A stretch of DNA of 64,000 bases from an uncultured Bacteroides sp. (lineage in GTDB: Bacteria; Bacteroidota; Bacteroidia; Bacteroidales; Bacteroidaceae), in the NCBI RefSeq assembly GCF_963676325.2, contig NZ_OY781098.2, positions 2,415,807 to 2,479,806 of the forward strand, given 5' to 3'. Of the stretch, positions 7,701 through 40,035 are shown in pieces. How positions within the stretch are numbered: position 1 is the stretch's first letter; each line of letters starts with the position of its first letter. The position numbers and the translations under genes were made by a program. Below the pieces are notes generated by a model. The model was not told the DNA's origin and searched no databases. It saw nothing but the letters and a program-made list of their open reading frames with translations.

Positions 7701-7876
7701 TCCGATGCACCAGCACCCGGATAAACGGTTTGAATGGTGAGCATAGGTAACTGAAACTTCGGCAACAGATTCAAATTAAGCATATTATAACTGACCAACC
7801 CGCCAAGAGCCAGTACCGTGAAAATCACTACAATTAATAGCGGTTTCTTTAGAGATGTTTCTACTATTGAAGGCAT
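4736..7876 (-). CDS. RND (AcrB/HAE1-type) efflux permease
   Basis: 1046 aa with 12-TM topology, two large periplasmic loops and AcrB-like N-terminal and C-terminal motifs. Confidence 0.9.
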   Translation of the reverse strand: MPSIVETSLKKPLLIVVIFTVLALGGLVSYNMLNLNLLPKFQLPMLTIQTVYPGAGASEVETSVTKKMEDALSTLENLKKISSTSMEGVSVIAIELNDGADPNQAVQDAQRKINVIKSDLPTGILDPSIDKLSLDEAPIMNIAASASLSSTKFYKLVEDRIQPRLAKLHGVGSVKMTGGNEREVKVNIDANKLKAYNISALQVLQAIQMANMEIPAGNVENVNSTYSVRLAAKYSNLNELRNTVIKTTATGEKVKIMDVAEVEDGIATQKLINRINGRDAIGIAIKKQSDANAVKVADLVKAELASIEKEYKSSQVKFEIASDDSVYTRASADAVVFDLILAIIIVSIVCFIFLHNLRSAMIVMIAVPLSIIPSFIVMYFMGFSLNLMSLMALSLVVGILVDDSIVVIENMFRYMEAGKSKWQAALEGCKQIMFTCMAITIVIVVVFLPLAISGGLIGNILREFAFPIIIATLSSLFVSFTVTPLLMSRFGKLSDDTKPTLSGRFSRLAERTFDSIVKVYSQVLLKGLQHKVTVFIITLVLLIGSFSLIPAGFIGFSFVPNTDQGMLTVTLDMDPQVTVFQNNQATMQAEKIISRLPEVERIYTNVGLSGSNTKNNVSTIDVKLVDKKERNVGIDVFAQKLKAEIMQVPGVRARVSVKGVSGDTTEPIQFIVQGTDFEKVQQTAALILNAVRHTPGTNDAKFSIDDPRQEVKVKLDRDKMATLGLSSSDVGSTLRVALNGNDDLKYTEGDFEYKIRVGIDKFDKTKAGDVSKLTFMNKNGNLIELNQFADITFGLGPSALERTDRIPSIIVKSNVTGRSSGTVGAEISAKIQGKISDGVTVKEGGMLEQQSNAFGSLGYAFLAAIVLIYLIMVVLYDSLLDPIIVMFSIPLSLIGAFLALALTMNDLNIFSIIGLIVLIGLVAKNAILLVDFTNHMRRDKGMDTFNALIEAGKERLRPILMTTFAMIFGMLPIAMASGNGAEFKNGMAWVIIGGLASSMILTLVVVPVVYYIFDKLTARFRHYTKNRAIEHLKETLMEEEEVVVSQ

Positions 7877-7917
7877 AATTTCTAATTTTAAAGATTAAGA
7901 ATCTATTAATACTCACA

Positions 7918-8976
7918 CTAATTCTTAATGACCGAAACATGTGCCCCGTCCATCAGGTTGATTTGTCCGTTTACCACAACTTGATCACCTTCTTTCAAAC
8001 CTTGCAGCACTTCAATACGACTCTCATAATCTTTACCAATATTGATTTTAACCAATTTTGCTATGCCACCCTCTACCAGATATACTGTTGGTTCCTTTAT
8101 ACTGCTTACAATGGCGTTTCTTGGAATGAATAAGGCAGATTGTTTTTCTCCCAGATCTATAGAAGTACTTACATAAGTTCCGGCTTTAAGCGGATGTTGT
8201 TTACTGTTTGGCAACGAAACTTCAACAGCATAAGAATGGGTATTATCACCTTTAGGACTTATATGAGCAACCTTACCACTGAAAGCCACTCCGGGATAAA
8301 TTTGTGTATTTACGGAAACCGGCTGACCATTCTTCAAATTATATACATTGAATTCAGGTACTGATAAAATTACTTTCAGATTAGAAATATCAGCTAACCC
8401 TGCTACTGGAGTAGATGCATTGACATACTTACCTAAATCTATTTCACGAGATGTAATGTACCCGCTGAAAGGTGCTCTGATATAAGTATCTTCCAATTGT
8501 TTCTGAGCTTGTTTCAATTGCACTTTTGCATTTTCATAAGCCACTTTGATGTCTCTTAACTGAGTTTCAGAAACAGCATCCCCGGTTCTCAATGTTTTAT
8601 AACGTTGTAAATCCTCCTGATATTTATTATAATTGATTCTTGTATTTTCCAGAGTTAACTTATTATATGCATTATCTACACGAGCAAGCACTTTGCCTTT
8701 AGTTACATAATCGCCTAGTTTGAAATAAATATTCGTAATCTCACCGCTGGCCTTTGATGCAACCATTACTTCCTGACTGGCTTCAACAGTTCCGGTCATG
8801 CTTATATTTGTTTCCGGTGTTTCCTTCTGCACACTTGCTACACTTACAGCAATATTTTTAGTTTCAATCTTCGCTTCTTTTTTACTATTAATTTCGTGTT
8901 TGTTCGCTGCCAATTTCCAAGCCATAAGACCTGCAAAAACAATAAATACAATTGATGTTATAACTTTCTTTTTCAT
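7918..8976 (-). CDS. RND efflux periplasmic adaptor (MFP) subunit
   Basis: 352 aa with an N-terminal anchor, coiled-coil hairpin and beta-barrel domains. It sits between the TolC-like and RND genes. Confidence 0.85.
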   Translation of the reverse strand: MKKKVITSIVFIVFAGLMAWKLAANKHEINSKKEAKIETKNIAVSVASVQKETPETNISMTGTVEASQEVMVASKASGEITNIYFKLGDYVTKGKVLARVDNAYNKLTLENTRINYNKYQEDLQRYKTLRTGDAVSETQLRDIKVAYENAKVQLKQAQKQLEDTYIRAPFSGYITSREIDLGKYVNASTPVAGLADISNLKVILSVPEFNVYNLKNGQPVSVNTQIYPGVAFSGKVAHISPKGDNTHSYAVEVSLPNSKQHPLKAGTYVSTSIDLGEKQSALFIPRNAIVSSIKEPTVYLVEGGIAKLVKINIGKDYESRIEVLQGLKEGDQVVVNGQINLMDGAHVSVIKN

Positions 8977-9001: not shown

Positions 9002-10360
9002 TTATTTAACCCAGCCTCTAATCTCACCGTTTAAAGACATAATTTCCAGTTCAGCTTCTTTGAACTTATAGAGTGCATCCAGATATCCTGATTGCGCATT
9101 ATTAAGTGCTACTTCGTCCTGCAGCAAATCATTCATAGTAGCTACGCCTTCCCTGTATTTGAGAGCTGTTTCCTTATATACCTGCTGTGCCAGATCAATG
9201 TTATTTTGCTGACGTTCCACTGTTGTTTTACTGTTATAATAATTATTCATCGCATTTTTATAGTCAGCCAAAAAATGTTTTTTAGTATTATCCAGGTTCA
9301 GACTACTCTTTATATAGTCGGCTTTTGCCTGATTGTATTTCGAGCGTTTCTGGAAACCATCGAAAACAGGAATCGTTAGTTTTAACCCAACGTATGATGA
9401 ATTGTACCATTTATTTGCTGCACTGTTATTGAAATAATCCTTAAACTCATTTCTCATTCCCTGATAACCAAATTGTCCGAATAATGCCACACTGGGAAGA
9501 TAACCTGCATTGGCCAGTTTTTGATTTAACAAAGCAACATCCTTTTGAGCCTCAATCATTTGCACATCAATATGATCTGAGAAGTCAATGTCATTAGCAG
9601 GCAAGGCAGAAATCAAAACCATATCAGCACTATCAGTCAGCAGTACCTCTTTATTGAGCGGAATCTCCAGCGTATACTTCATCATATTAAGTTGCTGTTC
9701 ATACAATGCCTTTGTATTGTCAAGCTGCGTTTGGAGGTTCTGCACAGAAACCATTATCCGATTGTAATCCACCTTTTTGCCAAGACCATTATCCACCTGC
9801 TTCTTAGTAATATCTGTCATCCTCTGTGTACGGGCAATATTATCTTCTATCAGTCTTTTTTGTTTCGCGGTAGTTTGTATCAGAAAGTAAAGTTTGGCCA
9901 CTTCCTTAACAATTTCTTCCTTTGCCTTTTGAACTCCCAGCTTTGAAACATATTCACCTTTCTTTGATAGTTTGAGTGCAGTTAGCGCTGTCTGGTTATA
10001 CAATACCTGATTAGCAGATATATTTGCCGACGCACTATATTGTACTCCCATTGTGAAAGGAATAGTAGTTCCGGGCTGTCCAAGAAAGTCGCCCGGTATC
10101 ACTGTCACGGCTAGTTTTGTGTTATCCTGAAACGTTCCACCAATTTCAACCTGTGGAAGTAAAGAAGAACGAGCCTCTTCTGTTTTCTGACGACTTTTCT
10201 CCTTGTCCTGAATTGCCTGAGAAACATTAATATTCTTTTCCGCCGCTATTCGCACACACTCTTTTAGTGAAAGAGCGGTAACCCCACTTTCCTGGGCAGA
10301 AAGATTTGCAATGCTAAGCAACGTAAATATTGCTGTTAGAAATTTCACTTTCATCCTCAT
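9002..10360 (-). CDS. TolC family outer-membrane efflux protein
   Basis: 452 aa with a signal peptide (...NLSAQ) and the duplicated OEP repeat pattern. First gene of the RND operon. Confidence 0.85.
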   Translation of the reverse strand: MRMKVKFLTAIFTLLSIANLSAQESGVTALSLKECVRIAAEKNINVSQAIQDKEKSRQKTEEARSSLLPQVEIGGTFQDNTKLAVTVIPGDFLGQPGTTIPFTMGVQYSASANISANQVLYNQTALTALKLSKKGEYVSKLGVQKAKEEIVKEVAKLYFLIQTTAKQKRLIEDNIARTQRMTDITKKQVDNGLGKKVDYNRIMVSVQNLQTQLDNTKALYEQQLNMMKYTLEIPLNKEVLLTDSADMVLISALPANDIDFSDHIDVQMIEAQKDVALLNQKLANAGYLPSVALFGQFGYQGMRNEFKDYFNNSAANKWYNSSYVGLKLTIPVFDGFQKRSKYNQAKADYIKSSLNLDNTKKHFLADYKNAMNNYYNSKTTVERQQNNIDLAQQVYKETALKYREGVATMNDLLQDEVALNNAQSGYLDALYKFKEAELEIMSLNGEIRGWVK

Positions 10361-10697
10361 AAATGTTTTTATTATTAGTCTTTGTTTTTATTTAATCTTA
10401 AATGCCAGTTTTCTCTGACTTTAATTCTACCATATATTTTACAATACAGACTCTTCTTAGAATCGAATGCAAAAGTGATATAATAATAGGCCACTTCTCT
10501 TAGTTCATTTCAGCTATTAGTTGTCCAAAACATGCAAATTCAATATTTACAGCTTTGCGTATAATCCATTTTCAACAAACATTTATCCATTTCGTGCATA
10601 ATAGAAGGAGTGGCATTTAATATAGTAGCACCAAATAAAGTAAATAGAACAGATAGAACATTGATTCCATTATTCAAATTAATTAAAGCCAAACAGA

Positions 10698-31438: not shown

Positions 31439-32416
31439 TTATGTAAACATTGCAATTATAGATATTATTCCAATAGTAAAAAAAAGAATAGTTATCCCGT
31501 AAAGCCCATCCAAAAGAGGAGGATGAGGTTCAACTATGGGTTCTCTGTTAAATTTCCGAATAAAAAATAGTCTCACTGGCTTCTGTATGATTAAATATAG
31601 AACAGGAAAATAAAATCCATAGTAGAGAAACGTATTCTCGTCTGATAAATACTCTCTAATAAAATGACCGTAAGCCAAATGTAAAAGTGCAATAATGATG
31701 CTATAACTATAGTACTTGTCTATTCTAAGCATTTTATAATCCCAATCAAACCAAAGAGCTACAAAGAAAACAAGTAAATAAGTTGTAATTGAACTAATAT
31801 CATTATTTGGATATATAAATAGAGAAGAACTATTAATAGCAGCTATAATAATTACTAATGCAAGAATAATTCTAAACCTATTCCTCACACTTTTCTTCGA
31901 TTTTTCATTTTTAATTTCAGCAATCTCCTGTTTAGTTAATGTTATTCTTTCTGGTTTCTGAAGTAATTTTGTGTCAATATCTGGAATGCTAAATGTTTTG
32001 GATTCATAAACTCTTGACACCTTACCGTTAAAATCTATTTTATAAGTTTCATTATCTTCTGTTGTCACAAACACATTATCGTATTCTTTATCGTTGTCAG
32101 ACACATAAACCAGAATCTTTTTATTCAATAGTTTTTGGGGATATATTTTTCCGTCACGTACTGTTGCATAGCCCTCAATACTAATATTATATTCAATTCC
32201 TTCCGGATAGCGTAGGTAATTTATCAGATAATTAAATTTCTCATTACTTAGTCTTTTGTCGACAACAATAAAATATTCTTCCTGTCCGAGTATGTATAGT
32301 TCTAACTTTATGTTACTCACTAAATCTTTTGAATAAAGCGCAATCCACTGTTGCAGTGCTTTTTTAATGTCGTTGCATAAACCACCTTTTATTATTATAA
32401 AATTGTCAATATTCAC
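31439..32416 (-). CDS. hypothetical protein C: soluble N-domain plus about 5-TM C-terminal domain
   Basis: 325-aa ORF with a GTG start. Residues 1-185 are hydrophilic, then a basic linker KNEKSKKSVRNRFR, then about five hydrophobic helices. Very AT-rich. No family recognised. Confidence 0.5.
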   Translation of the reverse strand: MNIDNFIIIKGGLCNDIKKALQQWIALYSKDLVSNIKLELYILGQEEYFIVVDKRLSNEKFNYLINYLRYPEGIEYNISIEGYATVRDGKIYPQKLLNKKILVYVSDNDKEYDNVFVTTEDNETYKIDFNGKVSRVYESKTFSIPDIDTKLLQKPERITLTKQEIAEIKNEKSKKSVRNRFRIILALVIIIAAINSSSLFIYPNNDISSITTYLLVFFVALWFDWDYKMLRIDKYYSYSIIIALLHLAYGHFIREYLSDENTFLYYGFYFPVLYLIIQKPVRLFFIRKFNREPIVEPHPPLLDGLYGITILFFTIGIISIIAMFT

Positions 32417-32483
32417 TTCGTCTTCATTCTATTTATAAAATACCACCAAACAACCAAGACTAGCCGGTGTTATGCCTGCCTAT

Positions 32484-33035
32484 TTATTTCCTTCTAATCT
32501 TCCAAATTTCTCTTAAGCTTTGAATATGTTGCTTAGCATTGATTCTGGCTTCACTCTTTGAATATCCGTTAGATCTATAACTTTTAGCCACTTTTTTTTG
32601 AATCATTTCATTCCATATGGCTTTCATATTCATATCTGGCACTTCTACTAATATTGTATCCTCAGTTACTTGAGAAACTTTTTCTCCCATTTTTCCAGCT
32701 CTCAAATAAAGACCTTTCGACTGAATAATGCCATCAATAAATATGTAATTCTGTTCAATATTAATTCTAATTCCAAATTCAATATTCATTGGTTTAGAAA
32801 AAGTCATTTTGAATATTAAATCTTCTCTTTTAAAGAAATCCTGTGTCCAATTCATTACTACATCACCAGCATTTATGGAATCATGAGCTTTAAACAAGTC
32901 AATAATATCTTGATTACCTTCAACATCAAGAACTAATGCAGGTATCAATCGACCTTCTCCAATATTCTCATGAGATATCATTCCCTTTTCTACAATGGAA
33001 AAGGTTCTTATTTTTATTCTTTCTATTTTAATCAT
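32484..33035 (-). CDS. hypothetical protein B: soluble, with basic C-terminal helix
   Basis: 183-aa ORF. Its ATG overlaps the upstream stop (ATGA at 33032-33035). No family recognised. Confidence 0.5.
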   Translation of the reverse strand: MIKIERIKIRTFSIVEKGMISHENIGEGRLIPALVLDVEGNQDIIDLFKAHDSINAGDVVMNWTQDFFKREDLIFKMTFSKPMNIEFGIRINIEQNYIFIDGIIQSKGLYLRAGKMGEKVSQVTEDTILVEVPDMNMKAIWNEMIQKKVAKSYRSNGYSKSEARINAKQHIQSLREIWKIRRK

Positions 33036-33589
33036 TCAACATCTTTAATTAGAACTGACTCTATGGAAGATTTCTTGCCATTTAAATCTGTAAGTTTCAA
33101 ATCATATTTTTCTATTCTATGGGTTTTATCAATCAAACTCGGCTGTTCAAAAATCAACCATTTTGTCGAGGTAGTATTTGCTTCAATCGCTATATCTTCT
33201 GGAAATACTGTTAAACTTTTTGCTTTAAGGAAATTTTGTAATTCAGGCTTATGTTCAATTGTTATTCTATTTACACTGTCGTCTGCCCTAAGATATTCTA
33301 TTTCTAAATCTGCTTTCAAAGTATTTCTAAATTTAGATTTATTTCTTATTGTCAAGTGAAATAAAAGTAGCCGTTTTACATTTTCTCCATTTGTTGGAAT
33401 AAATCCAAAACCCTCATTATAATATAAATTAAAATTTGATTGATTTTCATTATATTGTCTTTTAGATAGCCTAAGTGCGCCTCTTGCAGTTATATAACTC
33501 ATAAAGGCAATTAATGCGGATACAATCGCTGCTATCGCAGCGATTATCGCGATTTTGGAATCAGTACTTAAATTATCTATTTTGAGCAT
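33032..33589 (-). CDS. hypothetical protein A: single N-terminal TM anchor plus beta-rich domain
   Basis: 185-aa ORF. The TM helix KIAIIAAIAAIVSALIAFMSYI is followed by a RGALRLSKRQ positive cluster. No family recognised. Confidence 0.5.
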   Translation of the reverse strand: MLKIDNLSTDSKIAIIAAIAAIVSALIAFMSYITARGALRLSKRQYNENQSNFNLYYNEGFGFIPTNGENVKRLLLFHLTIRNKSKFRNTLKADLEIEYLRADDSVNRITIEHKPELQNFLKAKSLTVFPEDIAIEANTTSTKWLIFEQPSLIDKTHRIEKYDLKLTDLNGKKSSIESVLIKDVE

Positions 33590-33907
33590 ATTTCTTTTTT
33601 ATACAAGTGAGACATAATATCTATATAGCCACCATAAATACACAGTAAACATGTCAATTTAGGTGGCTTACCATATATTCTTATACGGTTATTTTTAAAA
33701 GTTACAAACTTAAACATAATTTTCACAAATTATCAATAATACTGACTATTTTTTATAAACATGTTTCTGTTATTTGTTTGCATATTGCAGTAAATTTTAA
33801 ACTATAATATCTCAGTAGCTCTTGAATTTAACGAAAATCAGTATCGTCTTTCAATTAATAAATGGCATACGAATGTCGCAACCAAGCCCTAAAAAATCGT
33901 TTTTTTT

Positions 33908-34016
33908 CAAAATTGATCTAGCAATCTAGCACTACCCACATAACCATCTATAAATAAACAAAATATCACCGCTAGATCAATTGAATTTGATCTAGCGGTG
34001 ATCTAGCGATCTAGCA
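33908..34016. repeat. left composite inverted-repeat arm (GATCTAGC units) of the VirE/HU cassette
   Basis: caaaattGATCTAGCaATCTAGCac, a 34-nt spacer, then caccGCTAGATCAAttgaatTTGATCTAGCggtGATCTAGCGATCTAGCac. It is the reverse complement of the right arm with few mismatches. The internal 14-bp-stem hairpin spans 33967-34000. Confidence 0.85.
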
Positions 34017-34026
34017 CTTTAGTCGC

Positions 34027-36108
34027 TTATTTAATCTCTACTACCTGGTACACTATTCCCCGGTGTGCAAGGCGATTGCCGAATTTATTCTTCAGTGTTC
34101 GTCCAAAAACCTTAGCGGCGTTGCTCGTATATTTAAATCCGGGATCGCGTTGCTGTATTCGTTTCAGTATCTCACCACAAGTCAGTTCCTCGGCTGGTTC
34201 ATCGCCTACTGGGGAACGGAAATAGATATCGGCAACTTCCTCTTCGGGCATCACTTGCTGAAAGCGGCGATTGCTTTTGGTGATGTACGCCTCTTCTTCG
34301 TGAGTAAACCAGTAACGTTCTTCGTTGCGAAGGGCCTCAACGGCTTGGGCGTAGAGTTGTTTGTAGTCAATGGGCGATTTATAATCAATCACTCCCAATA
34401 TAGCAATGCAGATATAACGACGACTTCCGGTTGGGTCGTTCAGTAAATCGAAGTTATTGCTTGTGGCTATAAATGTGGCATACCTGCGCATCTGCTGGGT
34501 GACACTGGCGTGGGGCAAACGGGCCTGAACAACTGCTTTTTGGAGAATATGCTTCACAAATCCTTGATAAGAGGGACTAATGGAGTCGAACTCGTCCATA
34601 TTAATCAGCGCAAAGCGGGTTAATGCCAGCTGAACATCACTGCGTTTGCTGAAGTCGATGCTGTCTGTGTAGTATTCACGTAGCTCCGGTGGCAGAAGGT
34701 TCATGCAATAAGTGGACTTTCCAGAACCCTGATCGCCCACTAGCAGCGGCAATGTGCTGTTTGCATGGTTGCGGTCAAGTTGTTGCCAATGGGCTACCAT
34801 TGAGAGAAACCAGATGTAAAACAGGTCTCTCCATTGCGGATTGTCGCACGGCACCCTATCCGCCAGTTCACGAATACGGTCTTTCCCGTCCCATTTTCCT
34901 ACGTTGAGAAGATAATCTTCAACAGGATCAAAAGAGGGCACGCGGTTTGATTCCACATAACGCTTGATGTCAACATCCCATGACGAAAGTCCTTCTGCCA
35001 ATGCATCGAGACAAATCGTGTTGAGCGCTTGTTTATTGACAGGACGAAAATCGAAATAGAAAGATTTCAGTTCCCTGTATTCCACCAACCCTTTCAACAT
35101 GTTTCTTCTGAGCTGGTAGCGTCGTTTCATAAACTCTTCCATCTGTGCCACCAGTGTCATGGAAGACGGGATACAAGGTTTATCACCAAATTTATTTGAG
35201 AGGGAATAGATATTGCGGAAGTTTGTACGCACTTCAAGCTCGTACTTATTCAGGTCATTATACATCAATGTCCACTTTACTGCATCTTCTTCCGGAATGC
35301 CCGAACGATAGCAGTTTTCCGCCAGTTTAATAAGAAACGGAAGCACCTCGCCACTCTCCCAGTCTACTTTGCCCACCGTGTCGATTGCATTCCACATGGA
35401 CGTATTGAACAAGGTAGAGATGGCATGATTCCGTTCGTATCCCGGCAACAAGCGTTGCAACGGATCACTAATCGCCTGGCGTTCTTCCTCAAAAGTGGGC
35501 TCGACAGGCATACGTACCGGCTGTTCTATACGAATAGGTGCGGCATCCGGATTATGGTACAACGAAGGATCAAAACTCATGCAGCATCCATGTTCCAGCA
35601 AAGGTTCTTTAAGCTCTATTTCGCGTTTCAGCTGAGGCTGATACCATTTCACCGCTTCACGATAAGCCTGTGCGTGAAACATTTCAGCGTGTTTGCGGTT
35701 CTGAGGTAATGAACTGTCGGGCAATGTGAAAGGAACTACTATCTTCACACTTCTGTCGCTGGAGCCAATAAAGGCCAGTAGAGTTTGCGGCAGACGGGAT
35801 GCAATTTCGCGTATCTGCGCCGCTTCATTATTATTAGCCAGATTATTTACCTCAATGGTTACACAACCATTATATGACGACATAATCTGCTGACTTCCAT
35901 CCTTACGGAAGGCTCCTCCAAAGACCAGTCGGGGAAGTTTCTTCACCTCCGGAAAATTCTGACCGGGCGTTGCATACTGAAGTACTTGTCTCAGGTTAGA
36001 TACCGGTCGGCTGCCGATTTCGGTTCTCATTGCTTCTACAGCAGTTTCTAGTTCAAGGGTACGTTGTGTTTGTGTTTTACCGTCGTTACGGTACTGTGTT
36101 ATCTTCAT
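34027..36108 (-). CDS. VirE-family (virulence-associated E / primase-helicase-like) P-loop protein with BT4734-like N-domain
   Basis: 693 aa with Walker A LVGDQGSGKST, a Walker B-like LINMDEFD, and the N-terminal domain typical of Bacteroides VirE_N proteins. It is GC-rich relative to its neighbours. Confidence 0.8.
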   Translation of the reverse strand: MKITQYRNDGKTQTQRTLELETAVEAMRTEIGSRPVSNLRQVLQYATPGQNFPEVKKLPRLVFGGAFRKDGSQQIMSSYNGCVTIEVNNLANNNEAAQIREIASRLPQTLLAFIGSSDRSVKIVVPFTLPDSSLPQNRKHAEMFHAQAYREAVKWYQPQLKREIELKEPLLEHGCCMSFDPSLYHNPDAAPIRIEQPVRMPVEPTFEEERQAISDPLQRLLPGYERNHAISTLFNTSMWNAIDTVGKVDWESGEVLPFLIKLAENCYRSGIPEEDAVKWTLMYNDLNKYELEVRTNFRNIYSLSNKFGDKPCIPSSMTLVAQMEEFMKRRYQLRRNMLKGLVEYRELKSFYFDFRPVNKQALNTICLDALAEGLSSWDVDIKRYVESNRVPSFDPVEDYLLNVGKWDGKDRIRELADRVPCDNPQWRDLFYIWFLSMVAHWQQLDRNHANSTLPLLVGDQGSGKSTYCMNLLPPELREYYTDSIDFSKRSDVQLALTRFALINMDEFDSISPSYQGFVKHILQKAVVQARLPHASVTQQMRRYATFIATSNNFDLLNDPTGSRRYICIAILGVIDYKSPIDYKQLYAQAVEALRNEERYWFTHEEEAYITKSNRRFQQVMPEEEVADIYFRSPVGDEPAEELTCGEILKRIQQRDPGFKYTSNAAKVFGRTLKNKFGNRLAHRGIVYQVVEIK

Positions 36109-36129
36109 AATTTCAGTTAAGGTAATTAT

Positions 36130-36528
36130 TTACTTTTTTGTAGCTTCTCTGTAAGTGCGCTGAAACTTTATCAAAGGAAGTGCACTGCGCATTTCTTTGT
36201 CGGCCTTGAAACAAACACGCTGTGCCGTTACTTTTGACGGTGTGCATTCATCGGGTGTTTCAAAGCCTTCACTTCCTGCTGATATGGAAAACAGACCGAT
36301 ATTTTTCAGATGAACCGTGTTTCCTTTCATCAGATAGGTCTGCATCACATCTCCCAATGCAATAACAGCCGCATGCACATCCGATTCATGAAGTGAACAA
36401 CGCCCGCTGATATCCTTTGCCAGCTCATCCACCCCTATCTGTCCGGAACTAACCGGAACACCGTGGTAACGCACCTTTTCTTCTCCCCCGCTCTTATCTA
36501 CTTTTTGACGAACAACATATAAAGCCAT
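36130..36528 (-). CDS. HU-like (Bacteroides HU_HIG-type) DNA-binding protein
   Basis: 132 aa. It matches the pattern of the Bacteroidales HU-domain proteins that usually accompany VirE-like genes (..VDELAKDISGRCSLHESDVHAAVIALGDVMQTYLMKGNTVHLKNIGLFS..). It lies 21 nt upstream of the VirE gene. Confidence 0.7.
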   Translation of the reverse strand: MALYVVRQKVDKSGGEEKVRYHGVPVSSGQIGVDELAKDISGRCSLHESDVHAAVIALGDVMQTYLMKGNTVHLKNIGLFSISAGSEGFETPDECTPSKVTAQRVCFKADKEMRSALPLIKFQRTYREATKK

Positions 36529-36567
36529 ACTTATTTGTTTATTTTATTTATAACCAGTTTATTTCTC

Positions 36568-36650
36568 GTACACCCGGGTGTAGCCGCCCCTTACACCCGG
36601 ATCTAAAAACAGACTCCACCCGGGTGTACAGGCGATATACACCCGGATGG
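36568..36650. repeat. tandem GC-rich hairpin / ACACCCGG motif array upstream of the HU-like gene
   Basis: Four ACACCCGG(G/A)T copies form two CCGGGTGTA-N9-TACACCCGG hairpins (36574-36600 and 36620-36646). There is also a perfect 14-bp palindrome TACACCCGGGTGTA (36569-36582). Confidence 0.6.
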
Positions 36651-36779
36651 AGACTCATTTTTATTTCTACAAATATAACAAATAATTATGTAAAATCCAA
36701 ATATTCAGAAGGGTATCTACGAGCTAAAAAGGACTTATTTTGTAACAAAAGAAGATTGCAAAAGTAACTATAATAGCAG

Positions 36780-36889
36780 GTGCTAGATCGCTAGATCAGT
36801 GCTAGATCAAACTTGATTGATCTAGCGGCGCTATACTACTTATTTATAACAAGTTAAGTAGTAAGTGCTAGATCGCTAGATCAATTTTG
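36780..36889. repeat. right composite inverted-repeat arm (GCTAGATC units) of the VirE/HU cassette
   Basis: gtGCTAGATCGCTAGATCagtGCTAGATCAAacttgaTTGATCTAGCggcgc, a 33-nt spacer, then gtGCTAGATCGCTAGATCaattttg. It mirrors the left arm. Confidence 0.85.
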
Positions 36890-36956
36890 CATTTTTATTT
36901 TTTATGAGAAAGAGGAGTTTTTATATGCATTTGCTCTTTATTAGATATAAGAGAAT

Positions 36957-37346: not shown

Positions 37347-37459
37347 AATTATTCTGTTATTAAGTTACGCGAGTTCGATATAACAACACTCAATAAAACA
37401 AAGAAAGTCGCATTTATAACTTGAATTTAAGAGAGAGTAAAAATAGTAAAAAAACGAAA

Positions 37460-38080
37460 TCAATTTATCAGTTCTTGAATCTTTTTATCTAATTCATCAA
37501 AAGGTGCATATCCTTGCTCTAACTGAGTAAAGACTCCGTCTTTTTCAAATAATAAAGTGGGATATGCCTGAGCATACTCAGCAGCTTTCAGAAAAGAGTC
37601 TTGCGTTGCCCTCTTTATTTGTTCTGAATTAAATAACTGAGAGAAGAGCTTCACATCAATATTTAGCTGCTCGCAGATTGAATAATATGTTTCTTCCAGA
37701 TTCAGGTCTTTGCCATGACAATATCTGGATTGCTGTACTTTCACGGCAAACGGTATAACAAGTCCGGGCTTAATCTCTTTCACCGCTATAATTGCCCTTG
37801 ACGGAATTTCACTATCCAGTATCACATCATTGTTTTTAACAAAATCAAAATAGGCCTCTCCAAACTTGACTCCCGTTTTTTGTTCAATGGCAAGATCATG
37901 TTTCAGAAAATAGTCTGCCATAGATTGAATTTGCTTTTTCTTATTACTGCCAGTCCACATACCTGCAGGGAATACCTCAAAAACAATTTTGCTGCTATAT
38001 TTATCAAATAACTTTAATGTATTATCCGAATTTCCAAAGCACCATCCACAGAGTGGATCCATTACATAAATTAGTTTCAT
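37460..38080 (-). CDS. DsbA-like thioredoxin-fold protein
   Basis: MDPLCGWCFG CxxC motif at the N-terminus, 206 aa. Confidence 0.65.
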   Translation of the reverse strand: MKLIYVMDPLCGWCFGNSDNTLKLFDKYSSKIVFEVFPAGMWTGSNKKKQIQSMADYFLKHDLAIEQKTGVKFGEAYFDFVKNNDVILDSEIPSRAIIAVKEIKPGLVIPFAVKVQQSRYCHGKDLNLEETYYSICEQLNIDVKLFSQLFNSEQIKRATQDSFLKAAEYAQAYPTLLFEKDGVFTQLEQGYAPFDELDKKIQELIN

Positions 38081-38085
38081 TACTT

Positions 38086-38475
38086 TTATTTCATTACATT
38101 ATTTACAGTTTGACTATCGACAAACTGTTCAAAACTAACGATTTTTCCATTTTTCAATCTCCAAAGATGAGTTACCCTTGCTTCGAAGTATTTGCCGGTT
38201 ACATTATATGTTCCGCTGTATGTGCCGTATGCCACCACTTTATCTTCGTCTGCAACATAACCTTCCGGAGTAAATTTATACTCTGTCCATTCTGTTGCCA
38301 GTCTATGAAAAACATTTTTGGTAATAGCATCTAGACCAATATAAGTACCGCCGTACGGAAATCCGGCAGCTTCTGTCCATGAAGCATCCAACGCTAAATA
38401 TTGAGCAAGGTTTTTTCCATTTTCCTCGGACGTTTTTCCTTCGTATGTACTTTTAACTATTTCTAAATTTGTCAT
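38086..38475 (-). CDS. SnoaL-like / NTF2-fold protein
   Basis: 129 aa with the pattern ...VVAYGTYSGTYNVTGKYFEARVTHLWRLKNGKIVSFEQFVDS typical of the ketosteroid-isomerase-like fold. Confidence 0.65.
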   Translation of the reverse strand: MTNLEIVKSTYEGKTSEENGKNLAQYLALDASWTEAAGFPYGGTYIGLDAITKNVFHRLATEWTEYKFTPEGYVADEDKVVAYGTYSGTYNVTGKYFEARVTHLWRLKNGKIVSFEQFVDSQTVNNVMK

Positions 38476-38492
38476 CGTTATATATTTTAAGT

Positions 38493-38526
38493 ACAGTCTG
38501 GCTATAAAATTTATTACCAGACTGTT
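38493..38526 (-). terminator. weak hairpin between the MBL and SnoaL-like genes
   Basis: 9-bp stem acagtctgg / ccagactgt with a 16-nt loop and no clear T run. Confidence 0.3.
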
Positions 38527-38542
38527 TATACTTACTCAATGC

Positions 38543-39382
38543 TTACCATTTCATTTCCCCTGTGTTTACTTTTGCACCAATCTGCAAGGCAGTATCAAAG
38601 GATAAATCCGGATATTTTTCCTTTAATGCTTTAATTAAAGCTTCAGATGTTTTATTCACCTTCAAAGCTTCTTCATAAAACAAAATATAATCTTTTGTAT
38701 GCTTCACTGAAGCTATATCTAATGCAACACCTTCTTTTGCATGAGCCGGAATAACAATTTCGGGTTGTAGTGACGATATTTTATCTAATATATCAACCCA
38801 TTTACTACGAGCTTCGCTGGTTTGTGCATCCGCCATCCATAAATGAAAATTATTTCCAAACACATTAATTCCACCTATCACAGCTTTTATAGAAGGAACC
38901 CATAAAAAAGTTCTGCCCGGAAATTCCTGCAATCCAATAATATCAAACTTTTGTCCTTCCACTTCAATAAAATCACCTTGTAAGATTTGTGGCAAAACAA
39001 CATTCGAAGTAATTGCTTTACCTAATCTTCCTCCCCAAACATCCAATTTTTTCTGAGCAGTTGCTTTGATATTTTCTACTGTTGCAGGCGTTGCATAAAC
39101 AGTTACTTCAGGAAAATATTTTTTAAATACTTCTAGTCCAAAATAGAAATCAGGATCGCTGTGACTTACGTATATTAAAGTCAAGTTCTTACCTGATTTT
39201 TTTATTTCCTGAGCTACTATTTCCGCTTCTGCCAAAGTAAATTGCGCATCAACTAGAATAGCCTCTTTTTGCCCATAAATAATAACTGATGCTACACCAA
39301 AACTATTTTCAGATGCATTGAATACTTCTAATGTCAATCCGTCTGTTGCGATTCTTTTAAAATTTCCCGACATTGTTTCCAT
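38543..39382 (-). CDS. MBL-fold metallo-hydrolase
   Basis: 279 aa. YVSHSDPDFYFG is an HxHxD-type motif variant, with later His residues (..IPAHAKEG..). Confidence 0.65.
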   Translation of the reverse strand: METMSGNFKRIATDGLTLEVFNASENSFGVASVIIYGQKEAILVDAQFTLAEAEIVAQEIKKSGKNLTLIYVSHSDPDFYFGLEVFKKYFPEVTVYATPATVENIKATAQKKLDVWGGRLGKAITSNVVLPQILQGDFIEVEGQKFDIIGLQEFPGRTFLWVPSIKAVIGGINVFGNNFHLWMADAQTSEARSKWVDILDKISSLQPEIVIPAHAKEGVALDIASVKHTKDYILFYEEALKVNKTSEALIKALKEKYPDLSFDTALQIGAKVNTGEMKW

Positions 39383-39629
39383 CTTGATCTTTTTTTAAGA
39401 CATTATATACTGAATTCATTTATACTTATCAACCATAATAAAGGAAACAATTTTTATTTGTTTTTCTTTATTATATATAGTTAAACAAACACAAAATCAG
39501 CAAACTATTTATCATGTTTGTTGATTTTGTATTTACGTTTGTTTCGCAAAGTAACTAATAATAGTTTATATTTGTAACTGGTTACTTTTTAGTAACTTAG
39601 AAAATAATAGTAACCCAATAGTAACCATT

Positions 39630-39956
39630 GTGGCAAAATCAAGTAAAAAAAATAACTGTCCCGTCACAGCAACGATTGCATTGATAGGTGGAAAGTGGAA
39701 AACCATCATTCTGTATTCTCTCTCGTCGGGGACTAAACGTTTTGGCGAAATAGCTGTTCGCATACCTGAAATCTCCAGAAAGGTGCTTACCGAACAGTTG
39801 AAAGAATTGGAAAACGATGGGTTGATTCTACGAGAGCAGTACAAGGAAATTCCTCCGCGTGTGGAATACTCATTAAGTAACCTCGGGAAAAGCCTCTCTC
39901 CTGTGTTTCGTGAATTAGAAATCTGGGGAACTGAGAATGTATTGGTAAAGCAATAG
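39630..39956 (+). CDS. HxlR family transcriptional regulator
   Basis: CPVTATIALIGGKWKTIILYSL...RVEYSLS. GTG start. It diverges from the MBL/SnoaL/DsbA-like genes. Confidence 0.8.
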   Translation: MAKSSKKNNCPVTATIALIGGKWKTIILYSLSSGTKRFGEIAVRIPEISRKVLTEQLKELENDGLILREQYKEIPPRVEYSLSNLGKSLSPVFRELEIWGTENVLVKQ

Positions 39957-40035
39957 CTTAAAGAAGCTATTAAAGCCTGAGTAATTAAATGGAATAAACC
40001 CAGGAGCGAATTCCGTTCCTGAGATTCCAATTATA

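Follow-up and report, generated by a model that had tools for sequence, protein, structure and literature searches.

The DNA considered here is a 64,000-nucleotide stretch from an uncultured Bacteroides sp. (contig NZ_OY781098.2, positions 2,415,807 to 2,479,806; the whole stretch is termed the window), which includes a 2.98-kb cassette in which a primase-helicase gene of the BT4734/BF3469 family and a small HU-like gene are enclosed by two mirror-image repeat arms. The arms are composite arrays of a short unit and are proposed to be cognate sites of the primase-helicase. All counts for the window refer to the full 64 kb, in which repeats were located by repeat search. The operon is read on the minus strand, such that the left arm is downstream and the right arm upstream of the genes. 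The features are:

31439..33907, minus strand: strain-variable segment adjoining the downstream arm, with three open reading frames (ORFs) of ~28% GC
33908..34017, no strand: downstream arm, with its outer dimer at 33915-33930
33931-33964: AT-rich spacer of the downstream arm
33965-34002: perfect 16-bp hairpin of the downstream arm
34000-34015: inner dimer of the downstream arm
34027..36108, minus strand: BT4734/BF3469-family gene, 693 aa, with BT4734_N/VapE/DUF3874 domains
residues 56-184 of this protein: AEP primase-like N-terminal domain (BT4734_N; Pfam)
residues 404-617: VapE/SF3 helicase domain, with Walker A GDQGSGKST, Walker B MDEFD and motif C TSNN
residues 620-689: DUF3874 tail (Pfam)
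34030..34251, minus strand: coding region of the C-terminal tail, residues 620-693, a predicted winged helix
34069-34125, minus strand: codons 662-680, with six residues that covary with unit type
36130..36528, minus strand: HU-HIG small DNA-binding protein, 132 aa, co-directional with and 21 nt upstream of the helicase gene
36557..36661, minus strand: operon 5' leader, in which four CACCCGGGTGTA-type repeats, spaced 23 nt apart, form two hairpins
36670-36677, minus strand: Bacteroides-type -7 box (TAnnTTTG), read by inspection only
36780..36913, no strand: upstream arm, with its inner dimer at 36782-36797
36801-36826: hairpin of the upstream arm, with a 10-bp stem
36827-36866: spacer of the upstream arm
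36867-36889: outer dimer of the upstream arm and CAATTTTG
36890-36913: conserved outer extension of the upstream arm, to TTTTATGAG

The arms (33908-34017 and 36780-36889) are each 110 nt in length, are 82% complementary and have 2762 nt between them; thus, the mirror-image architecture described in the first-pass annotation of this DNA is real. From inside to outside, each arm is composed of a tandem dimer GTGCTAGATCGCTAGATCA, a two-unit inverted hairpin, a spacer that includes TTATTTATA, and a second tandem dimer followed by CAATTTTG, and the outer dimers, shared spacer sequence and hairpins that had been noted are each present in both arms. The right-arm hairpin has the 10-bp stem first reported, whereas the left-arm stem, given as 14 bp, is a perfect 16 bp (33965-33980 / 33987-34002). 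The downstream arm begins 10 nt past the helicase stop codon and is organized as 2 + 2 (inverted) + 2 units. Exact copies of the unit GCTAGATC number 11 in the 64 kb, every one of them within the arms, compared to 1.38 expected by chance and a maximum of 5 in 100 shuffles of the window. The earlier count of six units per arm holds, with five exact copies and one GCTAGATT variant in the left arm and six exact copies in the right. Each unit had also been described as containing CTAG and GATC; of these, CTAG is invariant (core GCTAGA), whereas GATC is dispensable, and Dam/GATC methylation was set aside as a key feature because the sister arm type, built of GCTAGACT units, contains no GATC. In relatives, arm homology extends ~25 nt further, up to ...TTTTATGAG (window 36890-36913), and the left arm of the window ends at 33908, a strain-variable junction at which homology with all close relatives stops. 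An Rfam scan at the gathering threshold and a tRNA scan of the window gave no match.

The enclosed primase-helicase has intact ATPase motifs (Walker A, Walker B and motif C are all found), is matched by PHROG primase and helicase families, and is encoded by a gene body under strong purifying selection. Searches of the protein by Pfam, NCBIfam, PHROG and PADLOC detect only the AEP, VapE and DUF3874 domains and no HUH/Y1 transposase, and exact-sequence look-up of the window helicase and P0004 returns no record. A defense-system identity was considered and rejected, as PADLOC matches the generic PrimPol/VirE N-terminal domain only and no complete system. Consistent with the first reading, the segment is richer in GC than its surroundings (43-49% vs 27-36% in the flanks), and the ORFs within ~8 kb on either side of the cassette include no recombinase, transposase, integrase or phage genes, the neighbors being ordinary chromosomal genes.

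Recurrence of the bracketing arrays and dispersal of the arm

The bracketing design recurs across the family, which carries the NCBI name BT4734/BF3469 and is represented by several paralogs in single genomes. Among 80 family loci from reference genomes (Bacteroides, Phocaeicola, Parabacteroides, Tannerellaceae and others), a detectable inverted repeat brackets the gene in about half, the longest being 107-110 nt at 92-93% identity (L059 and L068). When an array is defined as the same 8-mer present at least twice on each side of the gene, with shifted regions as controls, matching arrays are found on both sides in 45 of 66 family loci (68%) vs 3 of 51 control regions (6%; p = 1e-12). The prospect raised at first annotation, that the arms might prove unique to this locus, is not borne out. 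A layout of outer dimer, spacer, hairpin and inner dimer is common to these loci, while the unit (8-11 nt) differs by locus, with (A)TCTATCAC in L011 and L059, GCTCTCAT in L029, TACCTACACAC in L068, GTGACAGCA in L033 and L034, GTTGCAGAT in L053 and AAGTCACGC in B. sedimenti (L086; protein 71% identical). In 32 loci the small partner gene encodes HU-HIG and in 23 it encodes DUF6078; it occurs on either strand and on either side of the helicase gene, and is outside of the arms in L013-L016, L033 and L034. The partner varies in identity and position while the arms persist; therefore, the helicase gene, and not the VirE/HU pair proposed in the first-pass annotation, is the bracketed unit, and the arms belong with this gene rather than with its HU-like partner.

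One cassette per contig is seen in the contigs sampled. Of viral contigs, only seven (IMG/VR, L087-L093) hold full-length homologs, which are 47% identical. These are probably host flank included in prophage calls rather than phage genes, because the gene is at or near the edge of the contig or fetched region in several of them. A second-family pattern scan recovers one known cassette only.

The arm also exists as dispersed copies. When metagenomes are scanned for the hairpin GCTAGATCAA-N6-TTGATCTAGC, 88 stretches are identified, of which only ~10 have the cassette (proteins 86-96% identical) and ~70 are without a helicase or HU homolog and carry a full-length, sharp-ended arm that is 72-82% identical to the arm of the window. 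Cassette and solo arms are found on common contigs (L181 with L234, and L196 with L237). The solo arms are intergenic without exception (82/82), and inverted doublets, the inner ends of which face each other across 83-130 nt in the manner of gene-less mini-cassettes, occur at at least five distinct sites. Across 92 aligned arm copies, conservation is 90-99% in the six units, with the four tandem units outside the search pattern among them, compared to 35-60% in the spacer; the length of the spacer is 39-40 nt in all 83 measurable arms. Because the units are conserved to this extent and the spacers are not, the pattern is that expected of binding sites under maintenance rather than of transposon ends in decay. 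Arms of the GCTAGACT type are likewise dispersed and share contigs with the GCTAGATC type, and arms of mixed unit type are rare (14 of 130 vs 76 expected). A survey of 2.7 Mb for solo arms of other unit families finds few candidates (L046, L076 and L073), too few to generalize, and the last of these is a duplication of the gene 3' end plus arm. In L073, a direct duplication with 92-96% identity between the copies (7704-8079 and 10297-10671) covers the last 238 nt of the helicase gene and the 138-nt downstream arm, and the duplicates bracket 2.2 kb encoding two proteins (112 and 584 aa) without known domains, in what looks like integration through recombination at the arm.

Several arrangements of the dispersed arms are also noted: (i) hybrid doublets, in which GCTAGACT-type arms abut GCTAGATC-type arms (L181 11779-11976 and L234; also L180, L186 and L200), with L181 and L234 being of contig Ga0183101_1000038, where the cassette encodes the GCTAGATC-associated helix, (ii) a third, partial arm at L018 13213-13312, composed of a hairpin, spacer and outer dimer of GCTAGATC-type units and located ~5 kb past the cassette and separated from it by the Sde182 gene (the L018 cassette itself uses GCTAGACT units), and (iii) a ~280-nt module found directly next to the outer end of many solo arms (at L239 7831-8110, with homologous stretches in other solo-arm loci). 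The module has an ordinary terminator hairpin plus four repeats (TTGTACAAAA / TTTTGTACAG) that are centred on TGTACA and spaced ~20 nt apart, and it may represent a second family of binding arrays that is nested with the arms.

Covariation of the helicase tail with the array units

The helicase proteins of L006 (unit GCTAGATC) and L018 (unit GCTAGACT) differ at 25 of 693 residues, and 11 of these differences fall in the Pfam DUF3874 region (Fisher p = 1.3e-5). When scored against the downstream-arm unit in 13 close cassettes, including metagenome cassettes, the helix motif AAKVFG occurs with GCTAGATC units in 10 of 10 and AAM(A/S)LG with GCTAGACT units in 3 of 3. Helix and unit types agree, accordingly, in 13/13 cassettes, and units are locus-specific family-wide. 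L196 has other L018-like substitutions, yet retains both AAKVFG and GCTAGATC. Of the 825 residues of the two cassette proteins, only helicase residues 662, 666, 667, 668, 677 and 680 split the unit types. The discriminating residues sit on the predicted recognition helix, a3 (662-675), and the start of the wing, while in the DNA the core GCTAGA is invariant and unit positions 7-8 vary between types. An AlphaFold model of the last 98 residues (predicted local distance difference test score, pLDDT, of 80.6) has the order a1-b1-a2-a3-b2-b3, and the fold is a probable winged helix. The helicase core is poorly modeled in the full-length protein (pLDDT 62) because the alignment is shallow, and this model was used for the N-terminal domain and tail only.

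Synonymous divergence is alike in the tail (9/39 codons) and gene body (122/654), while the ratio of non-synonymous to synonymous change is 1.2 in the tail vs 0.11 in the gene body (p = 1.4e-5), a tenfold excess of non-synonymous change in the tail stretch that is also observed in two more pairs. Distant loci with a common unit have excess identity in the tail only (p = 8e-4) and not in the N-terminal or helicase domains. The downstream spacer of L018 is similar in sequence to that of the window, with most aligned positions matching as judged by eye, while four units have changed in parallel. The equal synonymous divergence, parallel unit change and tail-only identity speak against the tail being a simple imported tract. 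Collectively, the sequence patterns suggest that the arm units are read by the C-terminal tail of the helicase.

The operon leader carries repeats of a different kind. The first hairpin of the leader (36652-36614), followed by TCTGTTTTTA, scores as terminator-like. The CACCCGGGTGTA-type leader repeat is also present at L086 6462-6546, L010 and L025; it is kept in cassettes with wholly different arm units and is confined to the co-directional HU-type subgroup, whereas cassettes of the DUF6078 type carry TTGAAAC repeats in its place. This conserved repeat (CACCCGG or TTGAAAC) goes with partner type and is distinct from the arm units. The leader repeats are a candidate attenuator or a candidate operator for the partner protein.

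Interpretation and rival explanations

The favored explanation, which is assigned a probability of roughly 0.55, is that the cassette encodes an initiator of the SaPI/P4 type and carries the cognate iteron arrays, which here are chromosomal, bracket the gene and are dispersed, an arrangement resembling REPIN-RAYT. Among the options listed in the first-pass annotation, an iteron array or origin for the primase/helicase is the one preferred here, given the recurrence with locus-specific units, the covariation with the winged helix and the homology to SaPI Rep. Each arm would comprise six recognition sites of 8 bp, in which GCTAGA is the core and positions 7-8 vary, and these would be read by the predicted winged-helix tail of the enclosed protein, which by homology and layout is likely a self-loading SF3 helicase-initiator of the SaPI Rep / P4 alpha / pRN1 ORF904 type. 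The downstream arm would match a SaPI-type origin, with iterons in both orientations around a fixed-length and mildly AT-rich spacer, and six sites per arm would fit the assembly of one hexamer. The upstream inverted arm and the ~70 solo/doublet arms may offer this protein additional places to load or bind, in which case the cassette would act as master gene to a family of cognate arrays spread through the chromosome. The architecture, its family-wide recurrence, the covariation of protein and DNA, selection on the units and the dispersal are observed here. The binding itself, the loading of a hexamer, DNA synthesis of any kind and the way in which arms spread are putative steps of this scheme.

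A number of observations count against the initiator explanation. No phage, plasmid or island genes are near the cassette, and thus replication has no evident purpose. AEP motif I is atypical in the BT4734 family (PMC11724360); hence, the primase activity of the protein is uncertain. The winged-helix fold is no more than probable because a Foldseek search with the tail gave no significant match (best E = 0.5), the list being almost all winged-helix DNA-binding domains, and the sequence profile of the tail matches no solved relative, with a spurious myoglobin match only. The tail coding region is at most 150 nt from the downstream arm, and this linkage adds to the 13/13 association. The three M-type cassettes may have a common ancestry, two of them retain a TC-type upstream arm, and CT-type arms share a contig with a K-type cassette. 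The AT content of the spacer, 0.69-0.74, is a modest enrichment (0.69 vs 0.63 for the window).

An alternative in which the arms are the terminal inverted repeats of a transposable element is considered unlikely. The cassette would be an autonomous or cargo copy, the solo and doublet arms would be akin to miniature inverted-repeat transposable elements, and the mover would be a transposase encoded elsewhere or an unrecognized activity of the helicase protein. The arm is indeed a discrete 110-135-nt repeat with sharp ends and intergenic dispersal, the inverted doublets resemble gene-less mini-cassettes, the cassette context differs between species (e.g., the B. sedimenti cassette has a different chromosomal context), and strain-variable DNA starts exactly at the arm edge. 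By contrast, the cassette and the ~8 kb around it are free of transposase and recombinase genes, and no target-site duplications are evident at the ends of the cassette or doublets. Among sampled loci, all of which contain an arm, none of the solo-arm loci matches the window on both flanks, as an empty site would. Arm presence/absence among orthologous metagenome loci, likewise sampled as arm-containing, gives 0 strict and 2 relaxed matches and no clean insertion polymorphism; both relaxed matches are one 85-nt deletion between direct repeats, from the outer to the inner dimer of one arm. The conservation of units over spacers points to a maintained function, copies that are 72-82% alike give no sign of recent bursts, and the winged-helix covariation is unexplained unless the helicase protein itself mobilizes. 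The mobile or non-autonomous element suggested at first is, thus, kept partly alive by the ~70 dispersed solo/doublet copies, while target-site duplication, clean insertion polymorphism and inversion were not found. Inversion of the 2.9-kb segment between the arms, as in an inverton or shufflon, was another early suggestion and is highly improbable. A long inverted repeat does flank the segment, and invertible regions are common in Bacteroidales; however, the orientation relative to the DUF2721 gene is identical in all cassettes with a readable flank (L001-L007, L018, L170, L171, L187, L192, L194, L234 and L246), no invertase or other recombinase is encoded within ~8 kb, and the whole operon would be inverted with its own promoter such that nothing is switched. 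The locus is syntenic beside DUF2721 in relatives with 86-98% identical helicase proteins.

The arms could instead serve transcription only, with looping operators that insulate or autoregulate the operon, hairpin terminators, and solo arms that form a regulon or dispersed terminators. Such a role is rather unlikely. As a terminator for the operon, the downstream-arm hairpin followed by ATTTTGTTTA fits the consensus, looping would suit a gene with symmetric arrays on both sides, and all solo arms are intergenic; yet the upstream arm is 100-200 nt upstream of the inferred promoter with no overlap, and the four tandem units outside of the hairpin are as conserved as the hairpin itself. Moreover, the inner side of the solo arms, which is the required arrival side of a terminated transcript, faces a gene 5' end in 37 cases vs a 3' end in 23, and a primase-helicase would be an odd pure repressor. 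It is quite improbable that the units are read by a host factor or by the small partner protein, which is HU-HIG here, rather than by the helicase tail. HU-family proteins bind DNA, HU-HIG is encoded inside the cassette of the window, and the HU proteins of L006 and L018 differ at 5 of 132 residues. However, no HU residue separates the arm types in the 13 cassettes, the arm design persists where the partner is DUF6078 (23 loci) or is outside the arms, and it is the other conserved repeat, CACCCGG or TTGAAAC, that tracks partner type.

The DNA directly outside of the downstream arm is strongly strain-variable, and relatives hold other genes there. In the window, this slot is occupied by three anonymous low-GC ORFs; its occupants elsewhere are a Fic gene (L001), genes for an Mrr-type endonuclease and an ATPase (L007), a strain-specific IS30-like gene outside the arm (L018) and immunity-like genes (L086). 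The window ORFs (31439-33907; 185, 183 and 325 aa, ~28% GC) have no Pfam, NCBIfam or PADLOC match, and the 185-aa ORF has one marginal PHROG match (E = 9e-4, function unknown). Of the three, only the 325-aa ORF is conserved in L007. Window 37365-40021 is a window-specific insertion of ~2.66 kb between the DUF2721 and CitMHS genes, which includes Thioredoxin_5, SnoaL-like and metallo-beta-lactamase-fold genes and a 154-aa ORF and is absent from L007 and L002-L004, where 37364 joins ~40020 directly. Recurrent neighbors of other cassettes include a HEPN/nucleotidyltransferase protein (L032 4540-5433), DUF3584 (SMC-like; L048 129-3560), DUF7281 (L043 1795-2655) and a Cas3-like helicase (L014 8202-10421), and defense-type genes are often beside cassettes.

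Beyond the initiator explanation, a bolder proposal is that BT4734-family cassettes are the master genes of an unrecognized class of intragenomic replicator, in which the primase-helicase, in place of a transposase, would recognize the co-evolving six-site arrays, load on them and copy them to seed the solo and doublet copies. This proposal is tentative and, on balance, doubtful. The system would be a vertically inherited gene-plus-repeat partnership, an analogue of REPIN-RAYT based on replication initiation, and the array edge would double as a junction for the exchange of accessory or defense cargo.

Most genomes of gut Bacteroides, Phocaeicola and Parabacteroides have several copies of BT4734/BF3469-family genes. 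BT4734/BF3469 is an AEP primase family of its own with no assigned function, which the papers found to name it treat as an unplaced AEP clade, and a prior description of bracketing, dispersed arrays for the family was not found in the literature. The family gains a putative specific DNA partner, a candidate recognition code (helix residues 666-668 vs unit positions 7-8), a conserved six-site geometry and genome-wide cognate sites, and the question of its function becomes directly testable by experiment. If the arrays are helicase-loading sites, the chromosomes of gut Bacteroidales would contain private origin-like sites by the dozen, and every set would have an initiator of its own, with a bearing on local amplification, the exchange of variable defense/immunity cargo beside the arms, and the persistence of dispersed repeats in bacteria.

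Comparison with known systems

The sole solved structure matched at the sequence level is 7PDS, the SaPI1 Rep (E = 1.3e-13 with the helicase-domain profile). SaPI1 Rep is a hexameric, self-loading SF3 helicase with a C-terminal winged helix that recognizes short iterons, 6-12 in number, and the SaPI iterons are directly downstream of the rep ORF, in both orientations around an AT-rich centre; SaPI5 has a fused Pri-Rep, PriRep5 (PMC9371898). The cassette is similar to the SaPI/PICI elements in having a homologous helicase domain and an array just downstream of the gene, here 2 + 4 sites around a 39-40-nt spacer. Unlike these elements, the cassette is without an island (integrase, repressor and packaging genes), its primase domain is of the BT4734-type AEP family, and a second, inverted array is upstream of the operon. 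The units of the cassette family are also longer (8-11 bp vs 5-6 in SaPI), the array is dispersed in the chromosome, and several paralogous cassettes are present per genome.

P4 alpha and pRN1 ORF904 share the domain order of primase, SF3 helicase and C-terminal winged helix (PMC2777425), and the minimal replicon of pRN1 is 3.1 kb, with a gene for a small DNA-binding protein, the rep gene and a ~100-nt structured origin just downstream (PMC4234260). The cassette, at 2.98 kb, is close in size to this 3.1-kb replicon and has the same gene order, and its helicase protein follows the same domain order with a predicted winged helix. By contrast, P4 and pRN1 are phage-satellite and plasmid replicons, with primases of the DnaG type (P4) and prim-pol type (pRN1). 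The iterons of P4 are octamers located in two separate cis regions, ori and crr. To our knowledge, there are no dispersed copies of the P4 or pRN1 origins. As the cassette has no island context, it is not a satellite or plasmid replicon by membership.

In REPIN-RAYT systems, the gene is flanked by its own inverted repeats, which are dispersed as doublets and singlets and are of gene-specific types (PMC3337134). The cassette protein is a primase-helicase and not an IS200-like HUH/Y1 transposase; thus, the cassette is not a member of this class. Its repeat is, moreover, a six-site composite of 110-135 nt compared to a palindrome of 20-40 nt, its singlets outnumber doublets and are well conserved, and no excision events are seen. 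The two systems are nevertheless alike in their inverted flanking repeats, in the dispersal of these repeats as intergenic doublets and singlets, and in the pairing of each gene with its own repeat type, such that genomes with several genes have several distinct gene-repeat pairs.

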